This document shows positions 9,001 through 27,000 of a DNA stretch of 64,000 nucleotides, piece by piece. This stretch comes from Peptococcaceae bacterium UBA5318 (GTDB taxonomy: Bacteria; Bacillota; Peptococcia; DRI-13; UBA5318), in NCBI GenBank assembly GCA_002408285.1, contig DHRG01000031.1, positions 5,726 through 69,725 of the forward strand. The letters are read 5' to 3'. A program made the position numbers. Positions within the stretch are counted from its first letter, which is position 1. The number at the start of each line of letters is the position of its first letter.

Positions 9001-12000
9001 GAAGGATATCAACCTTCCACAGCAGGCTATCATTGGCTCTATCAACAGGAACAAACAGGTTATTATTCCAACCGGCGCGGATTATATCTATCCGGGCGAT
9101 ATTTTAACAGTCTTTTGTTTGGCGGCCTATGTCAATAAAATTGAGGAATATTTTAATCGCTGATTAAAATAGGGTGAGGGTCGATCATGAACTACCGTAA
9201 AATCGTGTCCTTTTTGGGCGTTATTATGATGATTATTGGCGTTAGCATGCTCCTGCCCATTTTTTGGTCCCTGTATTATGGCGATGCGGATTGGAGCGTT
9301 TTTTTACTCAGCAGTTTGATTACTTGCCTGCTAGGGTATCTGGCTTTTAAAACTAAAATCGAAGATGAGGAATTTCACCACCGGGAAGCGTTGATCGTGG
9401 TGACCTTTAGCTGGGTCCTGGCGGCGGTTTTTGGCGCTCTTCCCTATCTTCTCTCGGGTGTTCTTACCTCTTTTGCCGACGGTTTTTTTGAAACCATGTC
9501 GGGATTTACGACAACGGGGGCCAGCGTCTTCCAAGATGTCGAGGCGCTTCCCCATGGCATATTGTTCTGGCGCAGTTTGACCCAGTGGCTGGGAGGCATG
9601 GGGATTGTCGTATTATTAGTAGCCATCTTATCCACGATCGGAAATAGCGGGATCCAGATGTTTTGGGCCGAAGCGCCCGGCGCCGCTAAAGATAAAATCA
9701 GACCCCGGATCAGCGAATCGGCGAAAATCCTCTGGTACACCTATTTAATCATGACATTTATTGAAACGGTACTGCTCTGGCTGCTGGGTATGCCCCTGTT
9801 TGACGCCCTTTGCCATACCTTTAGTTCTGTGGCGACAGGGGGTTTTTCCACTAAAAATGCCAGTCTGGGTTTTTATGAGAATTCGGCGATCTATTGGGTC
9901 ATCACCATCTTTATGTTTATGTCGGGAGCAAACTTTGCCCTTTATTATCAGGTGATTCGGGGTAAAAGCCCGCTGATTTTCTGGAAAGATGAGGAATTCA
10001 AGTTCTACTCACTGATTGTTTTTTTCTTCGGCGCTTGTATTACCGTCGATCTAATTTTGAAAATGGGATACGGCAGTTGGGGAGTCGCTGTTCAAGACGC
10101 CTTTTTTCACGTGGTATCCATCATAACCACCACGGGATATGCTATTACGGATTATGCTTTTTGGACGCCTTTCGCCCAGGGTATTTTAGTGGTATTGACG
10201 TTTATAGGCAGTTGTTCCGGGTCTACCAGCGGCGCTATCAAAGTGGGACGTTTAATGGTCATCATAAAACAAATGATGCTGGAATTCCGTAAAGTTATTC
10301 ATCCCAAGGCTATTTTTCACTTGAAAATTGATGGAAAAGCGGTGCCTGCCGATATGGTCATGAGTATTCTGCAATTTTTTTTCATTTATATAAGCATCGC
10401 GGTATTTGGCACCCTTTTTATGGCCTTCCTGGGACTGGATTTGGTCAGCGCCTTTACTTCCGTGGTGGCGGCCTTGGGAAATGTGGGGCCGGGCTTGGAA
10501 AAGGTGGGGCCTATGGCTAACTACAGTTTTCTTCCTGACGCCGGAAAGTATTTGCTTTCCTTTCTGATGATGTTAGGGAGGCTGGAGCTCTATACGGTTA
10601 TCGTCTTGCTGATACCGGCTTTTTGGCGGTATAGAAACTAAGCGGTATAGAAACTAAAACGAGCGGACAGGAAAAGACCGCCGGCAGTTTGAACCGACCC
10701 TAATTAGGTGAAGTTCGGGTGCCGGCGGCCTTTTAATTTCCGGCGCATTCAATCAGCGAAGCAACCAATCCGGCCCCTGCCAGCAGTTGTTCCACCGGCA
10801 TATTTTCCGTTGTGCTGTGAACGTTTTCGTACCCTACCCCTAAAACGACGGTAGGAATGCCTTTGCCGTTTAAAATATTGGCGTCGCTGCCGCCGCCTGT
10901 GCCGATCACTTTAGGCTGTAAGCCCAGGCGCTGGACGGCCTTAATCGCCAGAGTCACCGGGGCTTCGCTTTCCCCGATGTAAATAGCGGGGTAGCAAAGG
11001 CCCTTTTCCAGGGATACCGCAGCGCCGGATTGACGGGCTGCGTTGTGGAACCTTTGGCTCATATGTTTGAGCTGCTTCTCCAGTTTATGAGGGCTAAGGC
11101 TGCGGGCTTCACAGGCGATGACTACCTCCTCGCAGACGATGTTGGTAGCCTTTCCGCCGCTGATGAGGCCGATGTTGGCCGTTGTTTCTTCGTCAATGCG
11201 CCCCAGCTTCATACCGGAAATGGCCCTGGCGGCTACTTGCACCGCATTAATGCCCTTTTCCGGGCAAATCCCGGCGTGGGCGGCTTTGCCGGTGATGGTC
11301 ACCGTCAGGTTTTCCTGAGCGGGAGCCCGGTTGATGATTGTACCTACATCTCCTTCGCCGTCTAAAACATAGCCTATTTTTGCCTGCAGTAAAGCCGGGT
11401 CAACGTACCTTGACCCCATTAGGCTTGCCTCCTCGCCGACGGTGAGCAGGATTTCGATATTTCCACAGGGTGCAGAGGTTTCCTGAAGGTGCCGGACGCC
11501 TTCCAGGATCTGAACGATCCCAGCCACATCGTCTGCCGCCAGGATCGTGGATCCATCGCTGCACAGGATCCCGTCTTGCAGGAGGGGACGGATCCCTTCA
11601 CCGGGCTTGACCCGGTCCAGATGGGCGGAAAAAAGCAAAGTCGGGGCGGCAGGGCGATTCCCTTTTAAGTAGGCGAACAGATTTCCGCAATTCCCGTTAA
11701 CAGCTTTGTTGGCTTCGTCTTCAAAAACGGTCAAGCCCATTAAAAGAAGCTTCTTTTTTATGGCCCCGGCGAGTTGACGTTCCTTACCGCTTGGGCTGTC
11801 TATTTTCACAAGTTCTAAAAACTCCTCGACCATACGGTTGCTATTTATCATATGCCGGCCCCTTTCAAGAGATATTTTATATAACTTCGCGGGAATGCCG
11901 CAATTCTCCTTTAAGAAGCGTTGATTGTACGGTACAATAAAATAACAAAACTATTAAAGGGGGATGAATCTTATGGATAATGGCAGTGATTACAAAACAT

Positions 12001-24000: not shown

Positions 24001-27000
24001 AAGCCGACCTGGTCAAAACCGATGGACGCTATATCTACCAAGTGAGTCAGGGGCAGATAGTTGTAACCAAAGCCTATCCCGCGGAAGAGATGAAGGTTGT
24101 TTCCCGGATCAGGTTCAGTGATGAAAACTTCACACCCCGGGAATTATTTTTAGATGGCGCGGCGCTGGTGGTGCTCGGCGATACGGATACTATCCAGCCT
24201 TACCTTACCAAATCAATGGTCAATCTGGATATTTATCCGCCCGCCAGAATGGTAAACCGGACGAAAGCTTTGCAATATGATGTCCAAGACCCGGCGAACA
24301 TTACCAAAGTCCGGGAAATCGAGTTGGACGGACGTTATGTTACCTCCCGCAAAATCGGCGCTTCCCTGTACGTTATCGCCAACCATTATCTGGACTACTA
24401 TTGGCTCCAGCAAAAAGGAGAGAACATTACTCCGTCTTACCGGGATACGGCGGTTCAGGAAGACCCGATGACCATTCCCTATGACAAGATCCGCTACATC
24501 CCCCCGGTCAGAGAATCAGGTTATTTGGTCATAGCCGGCCTGGACCTGGCGAAACCCGCGGAGGCTGCGCAGATTTCCACTTACCTGGGAGTCGGCGAGG
24601 ATGTTTATGTATCTAATAACAACATGTACATCGCCCTGACCAGACAGAACATATCTCTTTTACCCGCTCAGGAAAACACCGCGGTCTACAAGTTTTCTCT
24701 GCAGCAGGGCAAGGCGACTTACCTGTGCAAAGGAGAAGTGCCGGGCAGGATCTTAAATCAGTTTTCCATGGATGAAAATAAGCATACCTTCCGGATCGCC
24801 ACTACGGTGAATCAACCCTGGAGCAGTGTCAAGCCGTCGCCCTGGAACAATGTCTATATTCTCGATGAAAGCATGAATATCACCGGCAAACTGGAAGGGA
24901 TCGCCCCTGGAGAGCAAATCTATTCTACGCGCTTTATGGGCGAGCGGGCGTATATGGTAACTTTTAAGTCCGTTGATCCTCTCTTTGTAATAGATCTACA
25001 AGACGCGGCGAACCCCAGGATTCTGGGTGCGCTGAAAATACCGGGCTACAGCGACTATCTTCATCCTTACGATGAAAACCATATTATCGGCTTCGGCAAG
25101 GATACTGTCGAACTGCCGCAGAAAGACCACAAGGGGAAAGCCGTGGGGACAACAGCCTATTATCTGGGCGTGAAAATGGCTCTTTTTGATGTAAGTGATG
25201 TGAGTAATCCTAAAGAAAAGTATAACGTCAAGATCGGCGACCGGGGCACGGATTCGGAGCTGCTGTACGATCATAAAGCGCTTCTTTTCAGTAAAGAAAA
25301 AGGGCTGTTGGCCTTTCCGGTAACAGTGCGGGAAGTTTCCGGCAACGCGATCGACGAGCGGACAGGGATCCCGCAGTACGGGCAGTTCGCCTTTCAGGGG
25401 GCGTACGTTTATAACCTCGATCTGGCAAACGGCTTTGTCTTGAAAGGACGTATTACCCACTTGAGCGAAAGCGACCTCTTAAAGGCCGGGATTTATAACG
25501 CTGATTCCGCCTTATCTGTAAAGCGGATCATCTATATTGACGACGTCCTATACACCCTGTCGGATAGAATGATCAAGGCCAATGGGCTGCAGGATCTGCA
25601 GGAGAAAAAAGCATTGACCGTCGGGGAGTAAGTCGGGGAGTAATAAAAAGATATTATGAAGAAAAAACATGGATTTTAGGCTCCTTCTCATAGGGACACA
25701 AATTAAACCGCGGGTGTTTAGGGAAGGCAGGCAGCAGATTTGGCTGTCTGCCTTTGCCGTCTGCCTTTGCCGTAGAGAGCTGGTGTTCAAACCACATAGA
25801 TGATTGGCACATTGTTTAGTTTCTGAGAAAGCTGCTCTCGCAAAAATTGTTCACCCATGGCCCGAACATCTGCCCGATAACAATATTTCCCCCGTCCTCT
25901 CCCTGTCATCAGCGCATTGTCAAACAACTCTATCGCATTGGGGAACGCTTCTTTGTTTATAGCGCGGTGCACGTAACTGTATGTCATAAAAATAATCTCA
26001 ATAAACAACTGCTTTTTGGCTTTTTCAGTGATCTGATCCGACAATTGTTCAATTAACCGCTTGTACATTTTTTTCCAATTCTCCACAAGAACGACTGGCG
26101 CAATCAGCAAACCCACTGTGTATCCAGCGTCGCTCATTCGGTTAAGCGCAGCTATTCTTGATGTTAAAGACGATGTCCCCAATTCAAGATTACGGATGAT
26201 TTCCTGCGGATTGACACTCATGCGCATAATGATCCGTCCGCGGTGGTTCAACGGAAGCAGCGGTTCCACCATATTAAACTTAGTCGGGAATGTGAGGAAG
26301 CCTTTTTTATTTTTTCCGAATGTTTCAATGGTCCACTCCAGGTTTTGCGTAATGGTATTTTCCAATATCAGGTCGCTGTTGCTGCCAATTTCAAAAACGG
26401 GGTTTTTGTCCGAACCGTTTGCCGTTTTTATCAGTTTATCCATCATCTGCTCCCGGTTGACGAACAGCCGGAGATAAGAGCATTTATTGTAATTACACAC
26501 CAAATAGCAGTAAAGGCACATGGCGCTGCAGCCGGACGAGGTATACGGCGCCAGAAAATCAGATACCTTGTGATTGGGCGTATATTTAAGCGACTTTCTG
26601 ACGCCGATGATCAGGTGCTTCTTCATGCTGGCAAATTCCTGATTTTCTTTTTTGCGCAGTTGTTCAATATTGTTATGATTTACAATAGGAATCCATGGAA
26701 CTTGCCCGAATTTTTGCCGCATTTGTCTGCCGAGCTCATAACCGAGCGCCGAAGGCTCGTAAAATATCTTGTCTGGATACAAACGCTCATCCCCGTTTCA
26801 TTTTATCTGATTATAATAGTATTACCAACGCATACAATTATTTTTGACCTGCTGAACATGAACTTGCACCACTAATATACAGATTTTTGCCTTAGGGTTG
26901 TGCTATTAAAACAAGAAGGGCACTATCATAGTGATAATGCCTCTCTTGTTTTCTTTCCCGGCGCATGGGTTTATCTCAGGGTATCTTCACACCCGGCAGC

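Follow-up and report, generated by a model that had tools for sequence, protein, structure and literature searches.

Short tandem duplications near gene ends

The stretch of DNA analyzed here, 64,000 nucleotides (nt) of contig DHRG01000031.1 from Peptococcaceae bacterium UBA5318 (positions 5,726 to 69,725 of the forward strand; hereafter the window), carries six tandem duplications in or beside genes for TrkH, a PPDK_N-like protein, a NamZ-like protein, a beta-propeller protein and a spore photoproduct lyase. An earlier note on the sequence had described them as recurrent duplications positioned at stop codons. All six were found where that note had placed them, by reading of the sequence, by an exhaustive scan for adjacent repeats and by Tandem Repeats Finder (Table 1). 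Their units, of 12, 12, 13, 14, 15 and 16 nt, are locally unique and were found nowhere else in the window.

Two of the units finish exactly on the last base of a stop codon, in agreement with the earlier description. In trkH, copy 1 finishes on the final base of the TAA stop (10639-10641), and in the beta-propeller gene copy 1 finishes on the final base of the TAA at 25629-25631. At both sites the repeat run is exactly as long as the unit and there is no flanking microhomology; the run being no longer than the unit, the phase of the duplication is unambiguous. Copy 2 at the trkH site lies in the 3′ untranslated region, ~14 nt 5′ of a strong bidirectional terminator hairpin recognized by folding.

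The duplication at 14910, at the end of the PPDK_N-like gene, has another geometry. The stop codon (14925-14927) sits in copy 2 in a shifted frame, so that the gene now terminates inside the second copy and the duplication must have originated within the last codons, not on a pre-existing stop. The predicted C-terminus changed from ...KQGAN* to ...KQE*, which rewrote the last 3 codons. What had been listed as a duplication at a stop is instead a C-terminal frameshift that makes its own stop. The protein is 984 amino acids long in every member of its cluster.

The NamZ-like gene is affected at both ends. Near its start, the perfect part of the array covers 17162-17189 (two-copy core 17162-17185, with 4 nt of microhomology), and the repeat extends the hydrophobic core of the signal peptide. 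At its end, the stop codon (18696-18698) lies inside copy 1 of the duplication at 18688, and a decayed partial third copy possibly reaches 18724. The site at 25746 is intergenic. It separates two convergent genes, that for the beta-propeller protein and, on the minus strand, that for spore photoproduct lyase, and is 14 nt distant from the stop of the lyase gene; here the duplicated sequence is the 3′ arm of a hairpin.

Table 1. Adjacent repeats in the window
Feature	Coordinates	Strand	Description
trkH site	10626..10657	+	16-nt unit GCGGTATAGAAACTAA x2, perfect; found by sequence reading, adjacent-repeat scan and Tandem Repeats Finder
PPDK_N-like gene end	14910..14937	+	14-nt duplication, 13/14 match, in the last codons
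NamZ-like signal peptide	17157..17192	+	In-frame 12-nt unit, ~2.8 copies
NamZ-like stop	18688..18717	+	15-nt duplication, 14/15 match, spanning the stop
Beta-propeller stop	25620..25643	+	12-nt unit x2, perfect, microhomology 0
Hairpin 3′ arm	25746..25773	.	13-nt unit x2 (25746-25771), perfect, 2 nt microhomology
DctM permease gene interior	22577..22602	+	In-frame 12-nt repeat, one mismatch; common to the variant strain; absent from the earlier list
Gene interior	59881		In-frame 12-nt repeat, one mismatch; absent from the earlier list
TAXI-type binding-protein gene stop	20643..20660	+	9-nt pair, one mismatch; chance-level as a repeat
62-amino-acid ferredoxin gene (37741-37929) stop	37909..37963	+	A-rich array, 11-nt period, 4-5 copies, straddling the stop

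Presence in several assemblies

The window lies in contig NODE_93 (139 kb) of ENA assembly ERZ724022, which belongs to run SRR1561950 of a fermentation metagenome. Its derivation from a metagenome assembly could speak for assembly or sequencing artefacts as the source of the duplications. However, the metaSPAdes, MEGAHIT (ERZ922858) and Logan assemblies of this run were 100% identical over the parts that they covered, at the trkH duplication and at each other covered site, and four sites recurred in assemblies of two other runs. In addition, with total lengths of 24-32 nt the repeats do not reach the k-mer size of the assemblers and so should be spelled out in the reads. Because three assemblers agreed and four of the five checkable sites recurred in a variant strain from other samples, the duplications are not assembly artefacts, and we regard an origin by error as extremely improbable.

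The host is an isolated, uncultured lineage of Bacillota that was seen in three sequencing runs only. Its NamZ-like protein had no relative above 68% identity in GTDB (one genome per species) or in JGI metagenomes, and none above 70% identity in a collection of 5.8 billion proteins.

Abundance and placement in the window and in related Bacillota

We defined an event as an adjacent repeat with a unit of at least 12 nt and at most one mismatch. By this definition tandem duplications are far above chance: the window contained 8 events, compared with 0.19 in first-order Markov resamples of its sequence. Two shorter pairs that the earlier note had offered as additional support are at chance level. 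For the 9-nt pair at 20643, ~4.9 nine-nt pairs with one mismatch are expected per window, and for the 7-nt pair at 54746, ~3.6 perfect 7-nt pairs are expected.

For a background, we used 160 loci of related Bacillota from two collection scans, of which 124 were non-redundant (1.69 Mb, with 1.61 Mb scored for placement). Genes were assigned there by a greedy longest-open-reading-frame rule, and each event was re-placed 400 times at random as a control. The background held 67 events, or 2.5 per 64 kb. Inside genes, 33 events were observed against 50 expected, and in 30 of these 33 the unit length was divisible by 3. Outside genes there were 29 events, which agreed with uniform placement: the stop lay inside the repeat in 2 (3.5 expected), 4 were within 20 nt after a stop (2.3 expected), none was in the last six codons (2.2 expected), 4 overlapped a start (2.6 expected) and 19 were in other intergenic DNA (18.5 expected). 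Gene 3′ ends hold 21% of these events outside genes, and the 1.61 Mb showed no excess of duplications at stops; likewise, the orthologous gene ends in relatives carried no such repeats. Background placement is that of random duplications filtered by selection, with no general attraction to stop codons.

The events of the window conform to the same filter. The three inside genes (17162, 22577 and 59881) all have 12-nt units. Three of the remaining events span or follow a stop, one affects no more than the last 3 codons and one lies between genes, so that every event falls in a tolerated class. Microhomology was also similar. Among 31 perfect background events it was absent in 9 and at least 3 nt long in 11, and the values of 0, 0, 2 and 4 nt in the window resemble this mixture.

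Ages of the duplications in a variant strain

A variant strain was reached through variant proteins in the same clusters. Its contigs L162 and L163, from runs SRR13155358 and SRR13155359, are 97.6-97.9% identical to the window over 10682-25631. The repeats at 14910 and 17162 and the weak pair at 20643 are present and identical in both contigs. The 18688 duplication is also present in both, more decayed there, with 4 substitutions and one indel within 30 nt, and its copies have diverged differently between the two strains. Thus four of the five checkable sites, one of them the chance-level pair at 20643, persist across ~2% divergence.

At the fifth, the beta-propeller site 25620, L162 and L163 have no duplication but a single clean copy, which reads ...GACC GTCGGGGAGTAA TAAAAAG. 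Because the variant strain is without it, this duplication is a recent polymorphism; the single-copy ancestral gene already terminated in TAA TAA. With one duplication missing from the variant, one diverged differently in the two strains and others shared, the duplications are independent events of different ages and did not arise in a single burst. The comparison of gene ends that the earlier note had proposed for polarizing the events was informative within the species, where the variant contigs dated 25620; other species offered nothing closer than ~70% amino-acid identity in the NamZ-like protein. The trkH end falls in a gap of the variant contigs, between 9298 and 10682, and a protein search with the TrkH C-terminus gave no near-identical fragment.

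Beyond the beta-propeller gene the two strains differ more. A segment of 1.3 kb (25655-26945), which carries the spore photoproduct lyase gene (25787-26782, minus strand, Pfam SPL) and includes the 25746 site, is absent from L162 and L163. In the block downstream (27142-30066) identity is only 84%, compared with 97.6-97.9% upstream. To judge from these sequences, the strain-specific segment and the divergent block indicate replacement by recombination with a more distant lineage.

Divergence between the window and L163 was mosaic elsewhere too, with 4-6% over 10.7-14.9 kb, ~1% over 14.9-21 kb and short hyper-divergent patches such as 14802-14867 (12 single-nucleotide polymorphisms, SNPs, within 66 nt) and 21076-21417 (~7%), a pattern suggestive of frequent recombination in short patches.

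Further sequence from the same lineage

We extended the analysis by ~32 kb, with L167 (1-5829) upstream, L164 and L172 downstream to ~+80.2 kb, the variant contigs L173 and L174 and the tail of L169. One further step along the contig contributed ~9.5 kb of this, and ~10 kb of variant sequence; neither added new events outside genes. The whole extension yielded two more events outside genes only, a background-like rate, and one of the two was at a gene 3′ end.

The first is an 18-nt pair with one mismatch, TTTAATACATAACTTTAC / TTTAATACATAACTATAC, at L164 20636-20671, ~6.2 kb past the end of the window. It lies in the divergent promoter region between genes for an SBP_bac_5 peptide-binding protein and an IclR regulator and could be an operator-like direct repeat. 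The second is a 14-nt pair with one mismatch, GCAGGTGTATATAA / GTAGGTGTATATAA, at L169 6684-6711. It lies in variant-specific DNA, 10 nt past a stop codon and directly next to a terminator. The variant departs from the window after 62157, and L169 6453-6781 has a different gene end, a terminator and an apparent tRNA gene end.

Explanation of the duplications

Probably, these are ordinary spontaneous short tandem duplications that were filtered by selection and happen to form a small-sample cluster. Each would have arisen by replication slippage or template switching, or, in the two microhomology-free cases, perhaps by fill-in and joining of a staggered break, at different times within this lineage. 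Duplications would then be seen only in places that selection permits. One that follows or spans a stop codon would leave the protein unchanged; other tolerated places would be the last few codons, an in-frame position in a permissive signal peptide and a terminator arm. The duplications are real and differ in age, and the selection filter operates in related genomes; their concentration at stops and within 15 kb would be a fluctuation noticed afterwards. Of the explanations listed in the earlier note, slippage-type duplication combined with purifying selection is the best supported, by the preserved frame in 30 of 33 in-gene events and by the uniform placement outside genes in relatives.

Several observations weigh against this explanation. 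With database gene calls as the gene map and tolerated positions computed under the window's own neutral model, 11% of tolerated positions are stop-spanning, 11% lie within 20 nt after a stop, 15% in the last six codons, 54% in other intergenic DNA and 9% are start-spanning. Gene 3′ ends were thus expected to hold ~37% of the window events outside gene interiors and held all five (p = 0.007). When the extra sequence of the lineage was added, 6 of 7 events outside genes were at 3′ ends (p = 0.012), and Fisher's test against the background proportions gave 0.002-0.003 (0.002 for the window). Two of the three stop-spanning units finished exactly on the last base of the stop (p = 0.014). Seven of the 8 events fell inside 15.2 kb (scan statistic, p = 0.006), compared with a maximum of 4 in any 15.2 kb of the 58 background loci of at least 15 kb. 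Furthermore, classical slippage accounts poorly for the two perfect duplications that lack flanking microhomology. The window tests are post hoc, as the pattern was first picked out by eye, and each rests on a handful of events; the departures are individually modest, but they agree in direction. A residual excess in 3′-end placement, exact phase and clustering within 15 kb is left without explanation at the ~1% level.

On another reading, termination of translation or transcription in this isolated lineage might be coupled to a process that makes 12-16-nt duplications bounded at or just after the stop, and gene 3′ ends would be true mutational hot spots and not just safe harbours. Candidates would be replication restart or template switching where ribosome release and RNA polymerase stalling occur, or end-joining of breaks there. 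We consider such a process very unlikely. The suggestion that something places duplications at stops is not supported: relatives show no stop bias, one of the listed cases made its own stop by a frameshift, the 9-nt and 7-nt pairs are at chance level, and the residual excess amounts to five events with a post hoc p of ~0.01. Full-text searches of the literature gave no description of short tandem duplications enriched at bacterial stop codons, which is not proof of absence. A rival explanation would be a genuine mutational hot spot at gene 3′ ends. Terminator hairpins, or the places where transcription and translation finish, would cause replication to stall or to switch template and would raise the rate of short duplications on the hairpins or just 5′ of them, with selection trimming the rest. 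It is an unlikely explanation that several sites nevertheless recall: 25746 duplicates a hairpin arm, 10626 finishes ~14 nt before the strong bidirectional terminator, the extra 14-nt duplication of the variant, 10 nt past a stop, adjoins a terminator, and hairpins resembling repetitive extragenic palindromes (REP-like) in loci L010 and L087 of relatives often have partial tandem duplications of an arm. In the background, too, slightly more events than expected lie within 20 nt after stops (4 against 2.3), but the difference is not significant, and stop-spanning events there are if anything below expectation (2 against 3.5). Moreover, no clear hairpin adjoins 14910, 18688 or 25620, and a hairpin mechanism gives no prediction of unit ends that are base-exact on the stop. 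A consensus terminator scan did not rise above shuffled sequence and was uninformative.

The strain differences raise the question of whether the duplications are recombination joints, by-products of an exchange of gene-scale segments between diverged strains in which the segments were joined at gene boundaries with an overlap of 12-16 nt. The drop in identity from 97.6-97.9% (up to 25631) to 84% (from 27142), with the window-only 1.3-kb segment adjoining the polymorphic 25620 site, would fit, as would the fall in SNP density from 4-6% to ~1% beside 14910 and the location of 25746 and the L169-tail duplication within strain-specific DNA. Against this, flanking SNP asymmetry was unexceptional, being matched by 5-7% of random positions for two sites and 27-86% for the others, and was unexceptional also when compared with other gene ends. 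Within the beta-propeller gene, divergence climbs gradually through the final 250 nt with no step at the duplication, and diverged homology runs ~25 nt beyond it; 14910 is common to both strains and so is not itself the joint. Gene ends are, in addition, independently expected as boundaries of both kinds of event. We therefore find recombination joints quite improbable. There is only a slim chance that the sites are footprints of staggered double-strand breaks, from an excised transposon with variable target-site duplication or from paired nicks filled in and end-joined in a spore-former. Two perfect duplications with zero microhomology fit overhang fill-in better than slippage, and the spore photoproduct lyase gene is typical of spore-formers, in which Ku/LigD end-joining is established. 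Yet the window has no insertion sequence (IS), miniature inverted-repeat transposable element (MITE) or other repeat family, no transposase adjoins any site, unit lengths range over 12-16 nt, and ~9 of 31 background duplications likewise lack microhomology, so that this property is not specific to the window. Finally, selection might keep the duplications for a function, for example as back-up stop codons or signals in the 3′ untranslated region. With the duplication in place, the next in-frame stop after that of trkH lies at codon 3 where it had been at codon 18, and the next after that of the NamZ-like gene at codon 5 where it had been at codon 14. In addition, four of the five sites that could be checked in the variant strain (the chance-level 20643 among them) persist across ~2% divergence. 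This reading is nonetheless highly improbable: no motif is common to the units, such repeats are missing from orthologous gene ends in relatives, the 18688 copies are decaying, and 14910 alters a protein and backs up no stop. The notion of back-up stops, which the earlier note had raised, is also at odds with the beta-propeller gene, which ended in TAA TAA before its duplication.

On the explanation by spontaneous duplication and selection, the case is of value chiefly as a point of method: in these genomes, 64 kb of sequence contains about one or two short perfect tandem duplications. Their pile-up at stops, C-termini and in-frame positions would stem from selection, and readers of such sequences will meet it often; it should not be taken for a signal. 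The strain comparison gives a clean example of a recent 12-nt duplication that spared the protein and, at another gene, of an older one that rewrote the last three codons. Only if the weak excess at stops were replicated genome-wide, would it point to a termination-linked source of mutation relevant to the evolution of gene ends and 3′ untranslated regions.

Other repeats and a mobile element

Several further repeats lie in and near the window (Table 1). The array at 37909-37963, which the earlier note had missed, is a low-complexity slippage array. In trkH, the coding sequence at 10462-10511 contains an in-frame 21-nt repeat of 2.4 copies with 82% matches, ~130 nt 5′ of the stop.

The region 39743-52806 is an integrative mobilizable element with a van-type operon, which encodes a response regulator, a histidine kinase, VanW, a member of the D-Ala-D-Ala ligase family, VanY and a VanT-like acyltransferase/alanine racemase. 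The element also encodes a DUF6076 protein, an AAA/DnaB-like ATPase, a NikA-like protein, a relaxase and a large serine recombinase (51139-52806). Proteins of the element are found on 22-60 contigs, some of which are labelled Muricomes or Desulfitobacteriaceae. The element is 14-29 kb distant from the six sites and free of tandem repeats of this kind; the earlier statement that none was present in the inserted element is correct for units of at least 12 nt.

In metagenome-assembled genomes of related Bacillota, GTGGCAGGGGGACGTTTCATCTGCCACAT is an intergenic REP-like hairpin element, absent from the window. One of its arms is frequently duplicated in tandem (14-20 nt), in some cases immediately 3′ of a stop codon (L010 17341-17441, 20113-20201, 21410-21449 and 12804-12831; L087 5361, 8221-8260 and 10554).

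Other candidates were tried and rejected. A motif shared among the units, GCGGT, occurs in three of them, but this pentamer is common here in any case, at 1.8 times expectation. Head-on conflict between replication and transcription was rejected as well: GC skew follows the gene strand, and if anything the plus-strand genes are co-directional with replication.

Comparison with known systems

Transposon target-site duplications are alike in being short direct repeats without microhomology and of similar length, 12-16 nt being within the range of some IS families. They differ in that the copies in the window are adjacent with nothing between them and that lengths vary by site. We rejected a transposon footprint, as there is no characteristic length, no element, terminal inverted repeat or transposase in the window, and the variant allele of 25620 is a clean single copy. 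The earlier argument against target-site duplications of a single transposon stands: unit lengths vary, there is no repeat or IS family, and the neighbouring gene encodes spore photoproduct lyase.

Integrative elements likewise give repeated gene ends at their attachment sites, where the terminal bases of a gene recur downstream together with its stop. There, the copies flank the inserted element. In the window the copies are in tandem and the sole integrase-type gene, that of the serine recombinase (51139-52806), is distant, so this candidate was also discarded.

The REP-like hairpins of L010 and L087 resemble, in architecture, only the 25746 site, which is also a hairpin with a tandemly duplicated 3′ arm. 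They differ in that GTGGCAGGGGGACGTTTCATCTGCCACAT is a multi-copy family, whereas the units of the window are single-locus. A dispersed repeat of REP or MITE type was rejected, since the units are unique and the REP-like motif of the relatives, CGTCCCCCTGMCAC, has 0 matches in the window.

The closest match is with spontaneous tandem-duplication indels. As in these, there are two head-to-tail copies of locally unique sequence, some with 2-4 nt of microhomology or a partial third copy. Events in genes keep the frame, others are non-coding or stop-spanning, and the rate per kb is similar in 1.7 Mb of relatives. The differences are that the two best examples in the window are microhomology-free and that the window is denser (7 in 15 kb) and more tied to 3′ ends, with a post hoc p of ~0.01. 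The kind of feature is already known, as short tandem duplications under purifying selection.

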